Shown in pieces: positions 12,233 to 39,722 of a stretch of 64,000 nt of DNA. The notes beneath the pieces were generated by a model. The model ran no database searches. It had not been told where the DNA came from and worked only from the letters and a program-made list of their open reading frames with translations. A program made the translations under genes and the position numbers. This stretch comes from an uncultured Kiritimatiellota bacterium (GTDB lineage Bacteria; Verrucomicrobiota; Kiritimatiellia; RFP12; DVOR01). Each line of letters starts with the position of its first letter. The first letter of the stretch is position 1. Location of the stretch: NCBI GenBank assembly GCA_944389945.1, contig CALXOF010000001.1:3016-67015 (forward strand), in the 5' to 3' direction.

Positions 12233-12259
12233 TTGACTCGGGGGGGGGTAAGCTATACT
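12233..12259 (+). promoter_or_regulatory. Promoter-like TTGACT-15 nt-TATACT with G9 homopolymer in the spacer
   Basis: TTGACT at 12233-12238. The G run spans 12240-12248. TATACT at 12254-12259. The ATG of the downstream gene is at 12285. Confidence 0.4.
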
Positions 12260-12284: not shown

Positions 12285-13175
12285 TTGATGATGGCCCACT
12301 CCGGTAACATTCTCTTTTTGGGTGGCGATGACGCCCAACGCAAGGCAATTCAGGCCGCGCTGAAACAGGCGTGCATGGGGCATGCGCTCTGGGACTTCTC
12401 TGAAGATGTCGAGAGGGGCAAGCAGACGCTCTCTTTTATTAATGGGACGCGTGTCTGCACCTTTGCATTTCGCCCACTTCCCGAAGACGTCCTTGCTTGC
12501 CGCAAGGCGGCTGCAGGGGTGGGCGTGACCTTTTTGGTTTGCATGGTGGAGGCCTCCGGTGAACCGTCCCAGTCCGTCTCACAGGCGTTGGAGGCGTTGC
12601 GGCAAGACCCGGCCTCCCCGACCGTCTATCCGCTTCTTTTGCTCGGAGCGAACCCCACGCAGATGGAGCGCGCGCTTCTGAAGTGGGGTGGGATGGGGCT
12701 TTCTCTTGGGGGCTCGCCGGATGCGCCTTATGGCATGAATGCTCTCTTGGCTCGTTGTCTGCCGTGGATGGCGATGGGCGAGGCACAGGGTGAGCTCACT
12801 GTTGCGGAGGTCGAGACGTTCTGGGGCGACTATTGCCGCTATGGCACCCTCAAGGCCCTCAATCGCTTGACGTTGCGCCTCAAGGACGAAGGCATTCTCG
12901 CGCCGCTTGACTATGCCTGGTTCCTTCCGCAAGGGACGCGCACCGTGCTCTCAGAGGACGTCCGCGCCGACCTCACAAAGTTGGTGTCGCTCTTGCCAAA
13001 GAGCGGTTGTAGCGCCCTCACCGTGGCCGCTCGCAAGCAATACATCGCGCGAATCGACCGCTTGGAACTCAACACCTTCCAAGTGCGGGAGTGGCGCACC
13101 GCTTTCACGATAGCGCTAAAGGCCGCAAAGTTCGAGAAGGAAAAGCCCGCCCTGCCCGCGCGGGGGGAGGGGTAA
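12285..13175 (+). CDS. Hypothetical protein (lower-GC gene)
   Basis: 296-aa ORF with no recognisable motifs. Local GC is clearly below the window average. Confidence 0.5.
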   Translation: MMMAHSGNILFLGGDDAQRKAIQAALKQACMGHALWDFSEDVERGKQTLSFINGTRVCTFAFRPLPEDVLACRKAAAGVGVTFLVCMVEASGEPSQSVSQALEALRQDPASPTVYPLLLLGANPTQMERALLKWGGMGLSLGGSPDAPYGMNALLARCLPWMAMGEAQGELTVAEVETFWGDYCRYGTLKALNRLTLRLKDEGILAPLDYAWFLPQGTRTVLSEDVRADLTKLVSLLPKSGCSALTVAARKQYIARIDRLELNTFQVREWRTAFTIALKAAKFEKEKPALPARGEG

Positions 13176-20165: not shown

Positions 20166-20713
20166 GACAATAGTGTAGCACATTGGAAGGTTGGAAGCTT
20201 GGAGGCTTGGAAGTTTGGCTTTGTTGGTGGGGCTCCGCCCCACACCCCAGCGGAGGAAGTTTGGAAGCTTGGCTTCTCCACGAAGACACGAAGGAGCGCA
20301 AGGGCCTGGGCACAAGGGGCGGCTTGCGCCGCCCCGGAGAACGGAAAACGGAGAACAGAGAACAGAGAGCGCGCGGCAAGCGCGCGATGGGCAAGGCGCT
20401 GTACAGGGCGGCGTCAGCCGCCGTCCTATTCCTCCTACCGCATCGTCTGAGGGCGGTTTTCTTGGGAAAGCGACAAGGCGCGAAGCGGAGGGCGACGGGC
20501 GCGGTCAGCGGCGGAGCCGCAGAGCGACCGATGGAGCCCGAAGCGGTTCGCGCCCCATAGCGTCTTTGCGGTTCGGCGGGGAGCTATTCCTCGGGAGGGG
20601 AGGGGGAATAAAACACGGGTATTAAAAATAAAACTTGCCCCCCCCTTGTGTTATGTTAGCATAATGGTGTTTTCGGACACCTCGCCCGAAGGAATTCAAG
20701 GATTGATGAAATC

Positions 20714-21358
20714 ATGAAACGACTGTTGTTTGCCTCGCTCGTCGCTGTCGCGGCGACCACCCTCCAGGCTGTAAATTACAACTGGACAGCTGTCAATACC
20801 AACAATGCCGCCACCGGCCAGGTGACGCTCGAGAACGGCCTTAGCCACACCAAGGGCTTCGCCGTCAGCCTCACCATCAACGTCACCCAAGTGCCGGCGT
20901 CCATCACCGGTGACTGGTGGCCGGCGATTCTCAGCTTGGGAACCTCTACGGAGAACCGGCCGAACATCACTGCCAACATGGCGGGGGATAACGTCATCCG
21001 CCTTGACACGAAGGCCGGCGACACGGGGAGCACCGCGACCACCATCACGACAGAGTCCTCATTGACCACTGGTAAGCACACGATTGTTCTGGCCTACGAT
21101 GGTACGAATATGACGCTGACTCTGGATGGGACCCAGATTGCCACGACCGCTTACACCCTGACCTACGACCCGAACCTCGTGGCTTGGGGCCAGCAGGCCG
21201 GATATCCGAATGACACGTACCTGAACGCCAACGACCAGTTCCAGTACACGATTGAGTCGTTGCAGGTCGGTCGGGTGGAGACCATCCCCGAGCCGACGGC
21301 GCTGGCGTTGCTCGCCCTTGGCGTGGCCGGCGTGGCCCTCCGCCGCCGCGTGGCTTAA
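20714..21358 (+). CDS. PEP-CTERM sorting-domain secreted protein (LamG-like)
   Basis: Signal peptide 'MKRLLFASLVAVAATTLQA'. C-terminus 'PEPTALALLALGVAGVALRRRVA'. C8 tract in the promoter at 20656-20663. Confidence 0.85.
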   Translation: MKRLLFASLVAVAATTLQAVNYNWTAVNTNNAATGQVTLENGLSHTKGFAVSLTINVTQVPASITGDWWPAILSLGTSTENRPNITANMAGDNVIRLDTKAGDTGSTATTITTESSLTTGKHTIVLAYDGTNMTLTLDGTQIATTAYTLTYDPNLVAWGQQAGYPNDTYLNANDQFQYTIESLQVGRVETIPEPTALALLALGVAGVALRRRVA

Positions 21359-21380
21359 GCGGACTTCGGTCCTTTGCAAG

Positions 21381-21407
21381 GCGCCCCACCCGGGGCGCCT
21401 TTCTTTG
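21381..21407 (+). terminator. Rho-independent terminator after PEP-CTERM gene
   Basis: gcgcccc-accc-ggggcgc hairpin followed by TTTCTTTG. Confidence 0.55.
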
Positions 21408-21687
21408 TGCACGATGCCAGGACTCATAGGCTCCACAGGAGATTCAGGAGGTTCAGGAGATACAGGAGCGCGCACAAGTGCGCGACGGTGGAGGCACTGT
21501 ACAAGGCGGCGTAAGCCGCGAAAAGCCAAGCCTCCAAACCTCTAAACTTCCAAGCTTCCTTGGTGCGTCCTGCGTGCGGTAGCACGCCCTTAATCTGCCC
21601 AAAATCTGCGAAATCCGCGGTTTCCCCTCTGGCCGCCCTTTGCTCCGTTCTCCGGGGCGGCAAGGCCACCCTAGGGGGTGGTTTCTG

Positions 21688-21795
21688 GACCCTTAAGGGT
21701 TTCGGGTCGGACCACTATAGGGTCTCGACCCCGACCACTATAGTGGTTGACCTCGGACCACTATAGGGTCTCAGGGCGAACCCTTAAGGGTCTCT
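21688..21795. repeat. MITE-like palindrome array (copy 2, inverted relative to copy 1)
   Basis: gacccttaagggtttc ... gaccactatagggtc ... gaccactatagtggtt ... gaccactatagggtc ... aacccttaagggtc. Confidence 0.8.
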
Positions 21796-32209: not shown

Positions 32210-32769
32210 AAGCACAATAGTATAGCACATCTCCCTCCGCTTTGCTTGCGCCCGATTTTCAAGAGGAAGTTTGGAGGCTTGGAAGTTTGGAGGCTTGGAG
32301 GAGCCACAGAGGTTGAGTCCCGGGCTGCCGCCCTTGGCGGCGATGAGAGCGGACGTTGCATGGCAAGCGCAGGACTGCCAGAATAGAGAAACCGCCGATT
32401 AGATTGGAAGTTTGGAAGCTTGGAGGTTTGGAAGTTTGGCTGGGCACACCAATTGTCTTGCTGAAGACTGCCAGAATGGGAAAACCGCCGATTACGCAGA
32501 TTAAAGCAGATTAGGGGCCGGCTACCGCCGGCAGGACTGCCAGAATAGGAAACCGCAGATTTCACAGATTTTGGGCAGATTAAGGGCGTGCTGGCGCACG
32601 CAGGACGCGCAATTGGAAGTTTAGAAGTTTGGAGGCTTGGAGGCTTGGCCTTTTTGCGGCTTACGCCGCCCTGTACAGCGCCTCGTCCATCGCCCGCTTG
32701 CGGGCGGTCCTGAATCTCCTGCATCTCCTGAATCTCCTGTTGGGCCATCTGAGGAGTGCGTCCCAAAGA

Positions 32770-32797
32770 AAAAGCCCCGCGGGGCGGGGCTTTTTGG
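32770..32797 (-). terminator. Terminator after PEP-CTERM gene (gccccgcggggcggggc + T-run)
   Basis: Identical hairpins also follow the PEP-CTERM genes ending at 33907 and 34814. Confidence 0.65.
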
Positions 32798-32812
32798 GGA
32801 TTGGGCGGGGGC

Positions 32813-33544
32813 TTAGGCCACGCGGCGGCGGAGGGCCACGCCGGCCACGCCCAGGGCGAGCAACGCCAGCGCCGTCGGCTCGGGGACGGAGGGATCTGGG
32901 TCGGAAGCTTCAGAGGCCGCAATCACTTGGTCGTAGGTCATCCCGGCCACGTAGTCGATGTCCATCGTGTAGGTATCCGCATTATTGTCCCACAGGTTCA
33001 TCCGCACATCGGTGCCGGAATCGCTCGTGCCCTGCTGCCCCCAGACGATGTGGGTCAGCGACTGGGTGGTGGTGTACGTGCCGTACAGGGTGCCGTCGAG
33101 GTAGAAGCTCAGCGTGTTGTTACCGTTCCAAGAGAGGACAAACTCATGGGTCGAGTTCGAGGTGAGCGTGACTTGTTCGCCAATCACCGACGGCGCGTCG
33201 CTCGCGGCCCCAAAGCCAATCGTGCCGCTGCTTTTGTCCGCGCAGTCGGCGTTGAACCGAATCGCCTGGCTGTTACCCTGGAAGGCGGCACCAATGATCG
33301 ACGGGTATTTCTGCCCACCGTTCGTGTAGGCGTTGATTGTTCCGGCGCTGAGGACGGCGGAGAGGGTCCATGAGCCGGAGCCAAGGTTGACCTGGTTCGA
33401 GCCAGTTCCGACGGTCATGGAACCGGAACTGGTCTTTGTGCCGAGGTCAACGTGGCCGGTGATCTTGTCCCAGTTGATGTTTGCCGCTTGGGTGGCGCCG
33501 AAGGCGAGTGCGGCGAGAGCGAGGGTGAGGAGTTTGCGTGTCAT
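32813..33544 (-). CDS. PEP-CTERM sorting-domain secreted protein (LamG-like)
   Basis: Signal peptide 'MTRKLLTLALAALAFGATQA'. C-terminal 'VPEPTALALLALGVAGVALRRRVA'. G9/C9 tract in the promoter at 33625-33633. Confidence 0.85.
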   Translation of the reverse strand: MTRKLLTLALAALAFGATQAANINWDKITGHVDLGTKTSSGSMTVGTGSNQVNLGSGSWTLSAVLSAGTINAYTNGGQKYPSIIGAAFQGNSQAIRFNADCADKSSGTIGFGAASDAPSVIGEQVTLTSNSTHEFVLSWNGNNTLSFYLDGTLYGTYTTTQSLTHIVWGQQGTSDSGTDVRMNLWDNNADTYTMDIDYVAGMTYDQVIAASEASDPDPSVPEPTALALLALGVAGVALRRRVA

Positions 33545-33865
33545 CTATGTCCCAACTTTCCGGTGTGTACACCTATCTTACAGGAAGGAATCCTGAAGAC
33601 TGTTTGCATATTAGCATAACTTTAGGGGGGGGGCAAGTGTTATTTAGAGGAAGCTTGGAAGTTTGGAGGCTTGGAAGTTTGGTTCTCGGGGAGGGGCGTT
33701 GCCCCACACCCTGCTTTTCTTCTTTAGAAAAGGTTGCAAGGCGCGAAACGGAGGGCGGCGGGCGCGGTCAGCGGCGAAGCCGCAGGGCGCCCGATGGAGC
33801 CCGAAGCGGTTCGCGCCCACAGTTGCGTCTTTGCGGTTCTCATTAATGGTGAGTGGGCAAAGAAA

Positions 33866-33893
33866 AAGCCCCGCGGGAGCGGGGCTTTTTGGG
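33866..33893 (-). terminator. Terminator after PEP-CTERM gene
   Basis: aaaaagccccgcgggagcggggcttttt. Confidence 0.65.
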
Positions 33894-33906
33894 GATTGGC
33901 GGGGGC

Positions 33907-34602
33907 TTAGGCCACGCGGCGGCGGAGGGCCACGCCGGCCACGCCAAGGGCGAGCAACGCCAAGGCCGTCGGCTCGGGGACGGAAGGATCCGGGTCGGGT
34001 TCCGGCAGGACAGCGGTCATCTGGGCGACCATGCGATCAATCTCCTCTTGGGTGAGGATGCCTTCATAGGCCGCCGTCTCATTGATGGTCCAGGCATCGT
34101 TCGCGAAGGTGGAGACAATGATATTTTCGGACGTGTTCGTATCCAAGACGGAGAAGAGCTGCACACCATTCGCGTAGCCGGTGATGGTGGCTTGATTGTT
34201 CGCGTTGCGCTCAATCGTGATGGTGAGCAGGTATTTCGTACCGACCGAAAGGGTTGGGGTATTGCTTGTGGTTCCCCAGCCAGTCTCAGAACCACCCTTC
34301 TTTTCCACGCCGATATGGCCATTGAGGGCATTCCCGGAGCCATACATATAGGCATAGGCGTGTCCGGCATCCCAGAGGCCGAGATCTGCGATGGCGGCTT
34401 GTTCTGTGCTGGCAGCCGTCGCATTCGCGGTCACCACCATGGCATAGGAGAGCGTTTTGGTGGAGGTAGAACCTTCCGTGGCGAAGTATTTATCGGTGTA
34501 GATGCTGTTCTCGGCTCCGGTTTGCCACTGCATGGTGACAGCCTGGGCGGAGAGGGCGAGGCCGGCGGCGGCACAAGCCAAGGCAAAACGTACGCATTTC
34601 AT
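33907..34602 (-). CDS. PEP-CTERM sorting-domain secreted protein
   Basis: Start at Met160 of track ORF 33907..35079 ('MKCVRFALACAAAGLALSAQA'). PEP-CTERM tail. G8 tract at 34680-34687 upstream. Confidence 0.8.
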   Translation of the reverse strand: MKCVRFALACAAAGLALSAQAVTMQWQTGAENSIYTDKYFATEGSTSTKTLSYAMVVTANATAASTEQAAIADLGLWDAGHAYAYMYGSGNALNGHIGVEKKGGSETGWGTTSNTPTLSVGTKYLLTITIERNANNQATITGYANGVQLFSVLDTNTSENIIVSTFANDAWTINETAAYEGILTQEEIDRMVAQMTAVLPEPDPDPSVPEPTALALLALGVAGVALRRRVA

Positions 34603-34768
34603 GGGTGTGTCCTTCGTCCCACGGGGGGCAGGACATCTGCCCGATTCACATGGAACGCCATTAAGATAGCACAAGTGACGGGGGGGGCAAGTGTTATTTA
34701 TTGTGTCAAGGCGCAACAAGGGAAGATTGGGGGCTTGGAAGGTTGGTTTCAAGCGGAGAATGGCAAAG

Positions 34769-34797
34769 AAAAAGCCCCGCGGGGGCGGGGCTTTTTG
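34769..34797 (-). terminator. Terminator after PEP-CTERM gene
   Basis: aaaaagccccgcgggggcggggcttttt. Confidence 0.65.
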
Positions 34798-34813
34798 GGG
34801 GATGGGCGGGGGC

Positions 34814-35491
34814 TTAGGCCACGCGGCGGCGGAGGGCCACGCCGGCCACGCCGAGGGCGAGCAACGCCAGGGCGGTCGGCTCAGGGATGTTGGTCGGCAT
34901 AATCGCGGATCCCGCGTCAACCAGCTTGGTGATCTCATCCGTGGTGAGGGTGCCATCATAAGTGGCCGCATCGTTGAAGGTCCACGCGGCATTGTTGGCG
35001 AAGGTCGCCGTGAGGGCGCCATCGGTGGGCTCAAGGATGGGATTGGCGTTGCCATTGAACGTAATTGGGGTCGTCCCATTGTTGATATAGAGCGTCACGT
35101 TCCAACGGTTGTTGGTGGAATCCCAGGTGCCATTGATCACCACGATGTGCGAGCCGGACGCAAGCGAACTATTGTTGTCCGTCCAAGTCGTAGCGTTAGA
35201 AGTCGTACTGTCGAAGTGGGCGCCAAAGCCATTCGCGGCGGAATAGGCCAAGAGACCGACAGCAGTGTCATCTCGCGTGGAGGTCCCGAAGGTCACCATG
35301 CTGGAGTTCTCGAGAGACTGGCCGGAGAAGGTCGTCGTGATCTTCACGGCGAGGGCGAAGTCGGCCTTCGCGTCACTCGAGCCGAAGATTTCCTGCGAGC
35401 CAGGGACGGTCGTGCTGCTCCAGGTCATATTCGCGGCGGAGGCAACCGTCGCCAGGCCAAGGGCCGCAATCAATCCAAGACAACGTTTCAT
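34814..35491 (-). CDS. PEP-CTERM sorting-domain secreted protein (LamG-like)
   Basis: Signal peptide 'MKRCLGLIAALGLATVASA'. PEP-CTERM tail. TTGACG-N18-TATTAT promoter with a G9 spacer tract (plus-strand C9 at 35573-35581). Confidence 0.85.
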   Translation of the reverse strand: MKRCLGLIAALGLATVASAANMTWSSTTVPGSQEIFGSSDAKADFALAVKITTTFSGQSLENSSMVTFGTSTRDDTAVGLLAYSAANGFGAHFDSTTSNATTWTDNNSSLASGSHIVVINGTWDSTNNRWNVTLYINNGTTPITFNGNANPILEPTDGALTATFANNAAWTFNDAATYDGTLTTDEITKLVDAGSAIMPTNIPEPTALALLALGVAGVALRRRVA

Positions 35492-35647
35492 GTCCTGCTA
35501 TCCTTTCTGTGTCGCGGCAACCACGTCGCGATTTATCAGCAATTCCATACTGATGAAGTAAATAATAGTCTACCCCCCCCCGTTTCGTCAAGTCTTTTTT
35601 TGCCTCTTGTGGGGCTTCGCGACTCCGGCCTCAAAAGGGGTCTTGGA

Positions 35648-35754
35648 GAAACCCTTAAGGGTCCGCGGTGAGACCCTATAGTGGTCGGAGGTCAACCACT
35701 ATAGTGGTCGGGGTCGAGACCCTATAGTGGTCCGACCCGAAACCCTTAAGGGTC
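35648..35754. repeat. MITE-like palindrome array (copy 3)
   Basis: aacccttaagggtc ... gaccctatagtggtc ... gaccactatagtggtc ... gaccctatagtggtc ... aacccttaagggtc. Confidence 0.8.
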
Positions 35755-36037
35755 GGCTGACGCCGCCCCTGGAGAACGGAAAACGGAGCGTGTAGGCGCG
35801 AAGCGCCAAACCTTCCACGGCCACGGAGAACAGAGAACGCCCCTTTGGGGCGACCGGCGAAGCCATTGTACAAAGCGGCGAAGCCGCCGTCCTATAGGTC
35901 CTATATGTCCTACCGCGATGCCTATTGGCACGTCGCAGACGTGCCGGGGGTGCAGGGAGAACTTCTCCCTGCCGGGGGGTGGGGCAGCGCCCCACATTCT
36001 TCCAATCTTCCATTCTTCCAATCAGCTAATCAGCCAA

Positions 36038-36997
36038 TCAGCTTCCCGCCCTTCCTGGGGCGGGAGGAGGTGGCGGGGTGCGGTCGAAGCGGCGGGTGGC
36101 GAGGGCGAGGTAGTGGCGCCAGGTGGGGCGAATGGTGACGCGGGGGAGGAGGTCGCGTTCCGTACGGCGGCGGTGGAAGGGCATGGGGTCGCGTCGGGGG
36201 AGGGGAAGGACGGCGTGGCGGAGGGCGCAGAGGGTGACGCAGAGGAGGAAGGGGAGTCCGCGGGTGAGCCAGAGGCGGGGTCCCCAGAGGCTGCAGGCGG
36301 TGGAGAGGAGGTTGGAGAGGTAGCGGCGCCAGACGCGGCGGCCGGGGAGTGCGCGGGCGGTGGTGCCTTCGGCGTGGGGGACGGGCGGGGGGGGGACGTA
36401 CCAGCATTCCCAGCCGGCGAGCCAGAGGCGGTGGCAGAGGTCGATGTCTTCGCCGTAGCAGAAGTAGGAGGGGCGGAAGAGTCCGCCGGCGGTCTCGATG
36501 GCGGCGCGGCGGAGGAGGAGGCAGGCGCCTTTGCCGGCGAGGACGGGGTGGGGGCGCTCGGCGTGTGGGCCGGGGGGGCGGCGGTAGCCTTGGTGCCAGA
36601 GGATGCCGAGCGGGGTGAGGTATTCGCCGCAGGTGTCGAGGGTGCCGTCGGGGAGGATGAGGGTGGGCTGGAGGGCGGCGAGGTGGGGGTAGGTGTCGAG
36701 GGCGGCTTGGAGGATGCGGATGGGTTCGGCGGCGGGGAGGGTGACGTCGGTGTTGAGGAGGAGGATGTGTTCGCCTTCGGCATGGGGGAGGGCGAGGTTG
36801 TTGCCGCCGGCAAAGCCGAGGTTGCGGGGGGCGCGGAGGAGGGTGACGCCGTCGGGGACGGTGAGGGGGGGCTCGCTGGCGTTGTCGACGACGAGGACTT
36901 GGGCTTCGGGCAGGTGGCGCAGGACGGCGGCCAAGCACCCTGAGAGGAGTTCGGGGTGATTCCAAGCGACAATGATGACGGTCAGCCGCGCATGCAT
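36038..36997 (-). CDS. Family-2 glycosyltransferase
   Basis: 'TVIIVAWN', 'VVDNAS', 'NLGFAGGNN', 'YGEDIDLCHRL'. Confidence 0.85.
   Translation of the reverse strand: MHARLTVIIVAWNHPELLSGCLAAVLRHLPEAQVLVVDNASEPPLTVPDGVTLLRAPRNLGFAGGNNLALPHAEGEHILLLNTDVTLPAAEPIRILQAALDTYPHLAALQPTLILPDGTLDTCGEYLTPLGILWHQGYRRPPGPHAERPHPVLAGKGACLLLRRAAIETAGGLFRPSYFCYGEDIDLCHRLWLAGWECWYVPPPPVPHAEGTTARALPGRRVWRRYLSNLLSTACSLWGPRLWLTRGLPFLLCVTLCALRHAVLPLPRRDPMPFHRRRTERDLLPRVTIRPTWRHYLALATRRFDRTPPPPPAPGRAGS

Positions 36998-37939: not shown

Positions 37940-39722
<1,783 letters not shown>

Follow-up and report, generated by a model that had tools for sequence, protein, structure and literature searches.

Four PEP-CTERM Genes and Their Upstream Regions

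The homopolymeric tract that is the subject of this analysis (tract B) is located upstream of gene B, one of exactly four genes for PEP-CTERM proteins that are encoded in the window, by which we mean the whole stretch of 64,000 nt that was analyzed (64% GC). The tract is an uninterrupted mononucleotide run, C8 here and C9 in other assemblies, set against a minimum of about 7–8 nt for such runs; in an interrupted version, it would read CCCCTCCCC. The sequence cTTGACAcaataaataacacTTGCCCCCCCCgtcacttgtgcTATCTT, which an earlier note had quoted from the gene strand upstream of gene B, was found as an exact match in the window, and the distance of "about 90 nt" that the note gave between tract and ATG (34602) is roughly right, since 77 nt lie in between and the far end of the tract is 85 nt off. 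Genes A, B, and C are arranged in tandem as independent transcription units with intrinsic terminators between them, so that each of these genes needs a promoter of its own (Table 1).

Table 1. Features of the gene B locus and of the paralogous loci in the window (promoter elements and terminators are predictions).
Feature	Position	Strand	Description or basis
Gene A	34814..35491	-	225-aa PEP-CTERM protein; G9 on gene strand
Gene B	33907..34602	-	231-aa PEP-CTERM protein; C8
Gene C	32813..33544	-	243-aa PEP-CTERM protein; C9
Gene D	20714..21358	+	214-aa PEP-CTERM protein with Laminin_G_3 domain; C8
Tract B, C8 on gene strand (G8 on + strand)	34680..34687	-	Read from sequence
Predicted -35 hexamer of gene B, TTGCCC	34685..34690	-	4/6 match to TTGACA; TTG invariant in 15/15 distinct module copies
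A-rich AAATAA, UP-element-like, adjoining the -35 on its upstream side	34694..34699	-	(A)AATAA-NNN-TTG in 15/15 module copies
Predicted extended -10 of gene B, TGc-TATCTT	34663..34671	-	TGn-TAnnnT exactly 8 nt past the tract in every module copy
Predicted 5'-UTR stem-loop of gene B, GGGCAG-atgtc-CTGCCC	34626..34642	-	RNA folds of homologous leaders
Intrinsic terminator of upstream gene A	34774..34786	-	Sequence prediction
Intrinsic terminator of gene B	33868..33880	-	Sequence prediction
Predicted gene C promoter, TTG-C9 (tract 33625-33633)-taaagtta-TGc-TAATAT, spacer 17	33608..33636	-	Paralogy
Predicted gene D promoter, TTG-C8 (tract 20638-20645)-ttgtgtta-TGt-TAGCAT, spacer 16	20635..20662	+	Paralogy
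Predicted gene A promoter, second class, TTGACG-aaac-G9 (35573-35581)-tagac-TATTAT, spacer 18	35562..35591	-	10/12 matches

Read on the gene strand, the region upstream of gene B is laid out as AAATAA, TTG-C8, 8 nt, and TGc-TATCTT, followed by 60 nt up to the ATG. The first three C residues of the tract form the end of the predicted -35 hexamer and the remaining ones belong to the spacer. In this first class of promoters, a tract of n yields a spacer of n+8 nt, hence 16 nt (C8) or 17 nt (C9). The AAATAA motif may act as an UP-like element upstream of the -35 region. Since the terminator of gene A is located 85 nt upstream, a local promoter is required for gene B, and tract B is predicted to lie inside the sole plausible promoter between this terminator and the gene B ATG. 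A sigma-70 scan left the promoters of genes B, C, and D unflagged (8/12 matches each vs. a threshold of 9), and the promoter call for these genes is thus based on comparative conservation and not on the scan; the placement of the tract between -35 and -10 is predicted from the sequence, in which each of the gene B hexamers has only 4/6 matches, and from a comparative footprint of 15 promoters. Promoters of canonical form are present at other sites in the window, e.g., in front of the GAPDH gene (TTGACT-17-TATTCT at 39012-39040), which makes a sigma-70 reading reasonable for this organism. An ECF-sigma-type promoter (AAC...CGT) was rejected because only gene B has CGTC past the tract, whereas gene C, gene D, and the orthologs lack it, and a G-quadruplex was rejected because a single run cannot form one intramolecularly.

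The promoters of genes B, C, and D represent one homologous module, (A)AATAA-NNN-TTG-C(8/9)-N8-TGn-TAnnnT, with the ATG 51–63 nt further on. The earlier note had described such a module as common to the neighboring paralogs. This applies to gene C, where aacacTTGCCCCCCC is an exact match (33627-33641, C9), and to gene D, where it occurs with one mismatch (20630-20644, C8), but not to gene A, which has a different promoter; the exact module is found in only two of the three other paralogs. Read as a promoter module that paralogs have in common and whose tract may vary in length, the description holds as far as sequence comparison reaches. Gene A and an unrelated ORF (12291..13175) represent a second promoter class with poly-G inside the spacer.

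G8 by itself is no more frequent in the window than expected from shuffling (10 overlapping matches vs. 10.1). There are six G/C runs of at least 8 nt, five of which are intergenic and lie 50–85 nt upstream of a start codon. Such a run is present upstream of all four PEP-CTERM genes, and all four share the same register relative to -35/-10-like hexamers. In shuffled 150-nt upstream regions, a run of at least 8 nt has a probability of 0.002–0.015 per PEP-CTERM gene, and the joint probability that all four regions contain one is ~1e-9. A fifth promoter-embedded run, TTGACT-c-G9-taagc-TATACT (12233-12259, with the G9 at 12240-12248), has a spacer of only 15 nt and is located upstream of ORF 12291..13175 (+ strand), which encodes a 294-aa protein without signal peptide and without a Pfam/NCBIfam match; the ORF is followed by a DUF805 gene.

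The tail of the gene B product, VPEPTALALLALGVAGVALRRRVA, has the three parts of a PEP-CTERM tail, namely a PEP motif, a hydrophobic helix, and a basic cluster at the extreme C-terminus, and the protein scores above the cut-offs of PF07589 (29.2 bits vs. 20.7) and TIGR02595 (23.3 vs. 16). Its N-terminus, MKCVRFALACAAAGLALSAQA followed by VT, looks like a Sec signal. The four proteins of the window show only 31–35% mutual identity, yet they carry an identical 23-residue tail, PEPTALALLALGVAGVALRRRVA. Paralog D matches PF13385 (Laminin_G_3; 33 bits vs. a cut-off of 27.6) as well as PF07589. For gene B, a lectin/LamG fold stays below threshold by sequence profile; its AlphaFold model (43 homologs, pLDDT 83.7) presents a ConA-like jelly roll whose best Foldseek matches (E down to 5e-8, TM ~0.45) are lectin modules, namely the CBM40 domain of the sialidase NanA, the lectin module of S. 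sanguinis PilC, BoNT Hc, and galectins. A ConA-like/LamG beta-sandwich is thus indicated by profile for paralog D and by the structure model for gene B. Taken together, the shared PEP-CTERM tail, the LamG profile, and the jelly-roll model suggest that the gene products are probably small, secreted, exosortase-anchored, lectin-like surface proteins. Such proteins are a typical cargo of contingency loci.

The 3' ends of the paralogs, which comprise the PEP-CTERM tail codons and the terminator, are 94–97% identical at the DNA level (32764-32904, 33856-33980, 34762-34889, and 21282-21360), compared to 31–35% for the rest of the proteins. This suggests that sorting tail and terminator are under concerted evolution or gene conversion. 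The downstream regions of genes C and D have a further 347 nt in common (82% identity).

Folding of 15 homologous leaders yielded a stem of 4–7 bp with a mostly 5-nt loop (often aTTCC) in most of them, ~10–25 nt past the -10. The stems differ between paralogs with the pairing kept (GGGCAG/CTGCCC, CAGGA/TCCTG, CGGGA/TCCCG, and GGGA/TCCC). Besides the stem-loop of gene B, such structures are located at 33572-33590 and 20672-20692 in the window and in the related loci L009, L011, L017, L023, L062, L063, L079, and L089. A search of the leader and intergenic DNA against Rfam gave nothing at gathering score, and RsmY was rejected as leader RNA (weak 21.7 bits vs. 57, on the opposite strand). The stem-loop may constitute a stabilizing hairpin or a regulator binding site.

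The intergenic regions are unusually long and hold short dispersed repeat families (arrays of ccaaacttccaagcttcc, as well as caggagattcaggagatgcagg, ttaatctgcccaaaatctgtgaaatc, and gaccactatagggtctc), for example, at 32400-32760, 33640-33720, 35640-36060, and 21400-21700, with blastn copies near 5.9, 18.4, 37.3, 39.3, 42.5, and 52.1–52.5 kb. With ~88–95% identity across the window, these look like REP/MITE-type repeats.

Distribution and Length Variation of the Tracts

The nearest genomes are uncultured Kiritimatiellaeota MAGs (BRZ_* series), and more distant relatives are Candidatus Spyradenecus (Lentisphaeraceae; gut/faecal samples) and a human-gut Kiritimatiellae MAG. In the window, the related MAGs, and independent metagenomes, which cover Kiritimatiellota and Lentisphaerota, 15 distinct module promoters were identified, in each of which TTG-C(8/9)-N8-TGn-TAnnnT lies behind the AAATAA element, 44–65 nt before the ATG of a small PEP-CTERM protein. 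Thirty loci resulted from scanning genomes with the protein family, and a G/C run of 8–11 nt was present 65–105 nt upstream of the PEP-CTERM ATG in 9 of the ~23 Kiritimatiellota/Lentisphaeraceae loci and in none of the loci from other phyla. When metagenome contigs were scanned blindly with the DNA module pattern alone, 29 matches were obtained. Four of these had the full geometry (contig GC 0.43–0.69) and were each followed by a PEP-CTERM protein of 201–226 aa; the other 25 were discarded as unrelated, since they were chance matches with C7 or belonged to different promoters of low-GC organisms.

In the first class, the run is a poly-C that begins in the -35, and in the second class it is a poly-G within the spacer; it is always located between -35 and -10. 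Promoters from other loci are TTGACA-gcaa-G10-tcg-TATAAT (L019; consensus hexamers, 17-bp spacer), TTGCGC-ggatt-G9-tgg-TACTAT (L028; spacer 17), and TTGACG-G10-aagtgTGc-TACCTT (L014). Since poly-C and poly-G occur at varying offsets from the -35, it would be a property of the duplex (length, slipperiness) that matters and not a sequence-specific binding site. In L023, a promoter of the first module type, the run is interrupted (TTGCCCCTCCCC) and the spacer has 17 bp, which looks like a "locked" version of the module.

Look-alike promoters were also encountered in human-gut metagenome contigs of an unrelated organism with 33–37% GC (L065, L066, L082, and L084). These read ATAAGTC-TTG-C9/C10-AAATACATGATATACT; the run differs by 1 bp between contigs, and there is no ORF start within 200 nt. 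A second look-alike group (L069, L070, L072, L090, and L092) reads TTG-C8/C9-GGCAAACATGTGATAGAAT.

By exact-protein look-ups, the same genes were retrieved from many independent metagenome assemblies. Tract B is not invariant: it has 8 nt in the window and in L001 and 9 nt in seven further assemblies (L002–L008), whose encoded protein is identical. Tract C has 9 nt in six assemblies, L002 and L064 have 8 nt in their allelic promoters, and tract D has 8 nt in eight assemblies and 9 nt in L046, where this is the sole difference in 902 bp. An indel census of 18 near-identical metagenome-assembly loci (72,092 aligned nt) revealed only six indels, all of 1 bp, five of them in tract B (34680) and one in tract D (20637), and no indel outside these two tracts. 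Compared to L003, L004, L005, L006, and L008, the tract B indel is the sole indel, and L003 differs from the window over 10,024 nt by one substitution and this 1-bp indel. Tract B is thus polymorphic in length among otherwise near-identical genomes.

In total, seven promoter lineages, including orthologs from other strains or species, are dimorphic for 8/9 with identical or near-identical flanks and spacers of 16 or 17 bp, and the dimorphism has recurred independently. These 8/9 differences are differences between assembly consensuses from different samples, so that they might reflect fixed differences between strains or, with lower probability, errors in the homopolymer consensus. The tracts of adjacent genes vary independently of each other, as the combinations B8C9, B9C9, and B9C8 were all observed. 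Within the first promoter class, 8 and 9 are the only two lengths. The G9 of gene A showed no length change in 9 assemblies of the strain, nor did the G9 of ORF 12291..13175 in 6 assemblies; not every 9-nt run in the organism is visibly unstable. The gene A G9 is also present in most orthologs, and a more distant ortholog in L095 (position 1108) has G13 with a spacer of ~21.

The PEP-CTERM array differs between strains in content and state. Gene A is missing from L063 and L064, L096 contains an additional 201-aa paralog with its own C9 module, and in L062 an AAA-ATPase/PDDEXK_9 gene is located between genes A and B. A further run was noticed within a GT2 glycosyltransferase gene (36038..36997, - strand), where position 36391 of the window is C on the gene strand, which leads to a C9/G9 run at 36387-36395. 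L001, L003, and L004, the assemblies with coverage here, have A instead and read CCCCACCCC, a substitution without frameshift, which is the sole substitution vs. L001 in 12.7 kb. In the same proline-rich part of the GT2 gene, related strains have runs of C7, C8, or C12 (L054–L058).

Proposed Mechanism and Alternative Explanations

We consider it quite likely that a sigma-70-type promoter has its mutable part in the C8 run and that slipped-strand changes of the spacer length lead to phase or "volume" variation of surface-protein genes that are switched independently of each other. Slipped-strand mispairing in replication would add one C to the tract or remove one from it. As the run fills part of the -35 and the spacer, this would toggle the -35/-10 spacing, and the UP/-10 spacing with it, giving a -35/-10 distance of 16 bp for C8, the allele of the window, and of 17 bp, the usual optimum, for C9. 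Transcription, which would start from this predicted promoter, would thereby be turned down or up for the downstream PEP-CTERM lectin-like protein. The change would be reversible, with C9 (17 bp) as the presumed "on" or stronger state, so that the C8 allele of gene B in the window would be the weaker one. Extended -10 promoters rely less on the -35 and on spacing, and a 1-bp change may therefore have a modest effect only. That expression depends on tract length is suggested by the 16- vs. 17-bp spacing and by the precedent of the Bordetella fimX promoter, where one extra C (C7 vs. C8) changes the transcript about fourfold (PMC1891110). Because each paralog has its own tract promoter and its own terminator, the genes would switch independently, and this could result in mixed surface-protein combinations within a population, as expected of contingency loci.

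With less confidence, we lean slightly toward a wider view, in which gut-associated Kiritimatiellota/Lentisphaerota would have a clade-wide "cassette" system. Here, a shared mutable-run promoter, a leader hairpin, a signal peptide, and a homogenized PEP-CTERM tail with terminator would frame hypervariable lectin-like domains, and many such genes would switch independently and give rise to combinatorial surface coats.

It could also be that the run is a static element, either a rigid poly(dG).poly(dC) spacer or the site of a dedicated PEP-CTERM regulator, and that the 8/9 difference is neutral polymorphism or assembly noise. The run is uninterrupted across species with contigs of 53% to 69% GC, only two lengths occur, and the G9 runs of gene A and ORF 12291..13175 are invariant, all of which would fit such an element, as would the extended -10, which could lower the importance of spacing. 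However, the existence of poly-C and poly-G versions with differing -35 offsets speaks against a strand- or position-specific site, indels are confined to the runs across 72 kb and recur independently in 7 lineages, and the same promoter with its 17-bp spacing is retained in L023 despite an interrupted run. Moreover, a regulator could coexist with slippage, as is the case for BvgA at the Bordetella fim promoters. A purely static role thus appears unlikely.

Still less probable, to an extent that we give it little weight, is that the run belongs to the transcribed 5' leader and acts via RNA or reiterative transcription, with the true promoter further upstream. Gene B does have a consensus TTGACA (34704-34709) at a distance of 14 nt upstream of its TTG, and the conserved leader hairpin would make RNA-level control possible in principle. 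This TTGACA, which the earlier note had capitalized, is, however, not the -35, a role that is predicted for the TTG of TTGCCC: it is 35 nt away from TATCTT, has no -10 partner at 16–19 nt, where CCCCCC is found, and is not conserved in paralogs C and D or in the orthologs. In addition, TTG and TGnTAnnnT flank the run at fixed distances, which is promoter geometry, and the runs of the second class lie between near-consensus hexamers, as in L019 (TTGACA-17-TATAAT). Finally, that such runs are merely to be expected in a G-rich genome, for which the G8 count of the window at shuffle expectation could be cited, is effectively refuted by their placement, their conservation, the indel evidence, and the joint probability given above.

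Comparison With Known Systems and Significance

Spacer-length variation as proposed here has several counterparts. In Neisseria meningitidis, promoter-spacer tracts of porA (poly-G), opc (poly-C), and fetA (poly-C) grade expression with 17 bp as the best spacing, which is experimentally proven. The homopolymer between -35 and -10 and the outer-membrane protein targets are alike, whereas the Neisseria genes are single genes without a family-wide promoter cassette, organism and protein class are different, and the effect proposed for gene B is predicted from sequence. The vlp genes of Mycoplasma hyorhinis encode a lipoprotein family and have a poly-A tract in the promoter spacer. Here, too, tandem divergent surface-protein genes each possess their own mutable spacer tract, which leads to combinatorial mosaics; in contrast, the Mycoplasma genome is AT-rich and its tract is poly-A, the products are lipoproteins, and size variation via coding repeats is involved as well. 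The "C-stretch" of fim2, fim3, and fimX in Bordetella pertussis resembles the module in that a promoter poly-C is located just upstream of the -10 of several paralogous surface-structure genes and undergoes independent 1-bp slippage (PMC1891110, citing Willems et al.). The fim promoters differ in that they need the BvgA activator and a "fim box," have runs of 7–19 C, and drive fimbrial subunits, whereas in the module described here the run is 8–9 nt long, abuts the TTG of the -35, and is combined with an extended -10, the cargo is probably exosortase-sorted and lectin-like, and the phylum is unrelated (PVC group).

Two further systems are related by cargo or by lineage. PEP-CTERM genes of gut bacteria have been linked to invertible promoters (inverton group 138; PMC11892184), which likewise represents apparently heritable, reversible on/off control of PEP-CTERM cargo in gut bacteria, but by site-specific promoter inversion and not by homopolymer slippage. 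Poly-G tracts of Chlamydia pmpG (PMC6740158) are slipped-strand homopolymers in expanded surface-adhesin families within the PVC superphylum; they differ in being located within the coding sequence and acting by frameshift. In the literature, we found no report that ties PEP-CTERM/exosortase genes, Kiritimatiellota, or Lentisphaerota to promoter homopolymer switching; an Akkermansia genome paper contains both topics and draws no connection between them. The class of mechanism is therefore well established, and what is most likely new is the bacterial group and the gene family.

Although PVC-group and environmental bacteria carry PEP-CTERM proteins in abundance, to our knowledge almost nothing has been established about their roles. 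If the cassette system holds true, it would provide the first regulatory logic for these large and functionally obscure families and would be the first promoter-tract contingency system in Kiritimatiellota/Lentisphaerota, extending simple-sequence contingency loci to uncultured gut members of both groups. If the family sits behind independently mutable promoters, its proteins are likely to be exposed and subject to fluctuating selection, for instance, by host antibody, phage, or changing glycans. Tract length would then be a natural on/off marker in metagenomes and a handle on function, and the tract lengths found in MAGs would have to be read as population states and not as fixed sequence.
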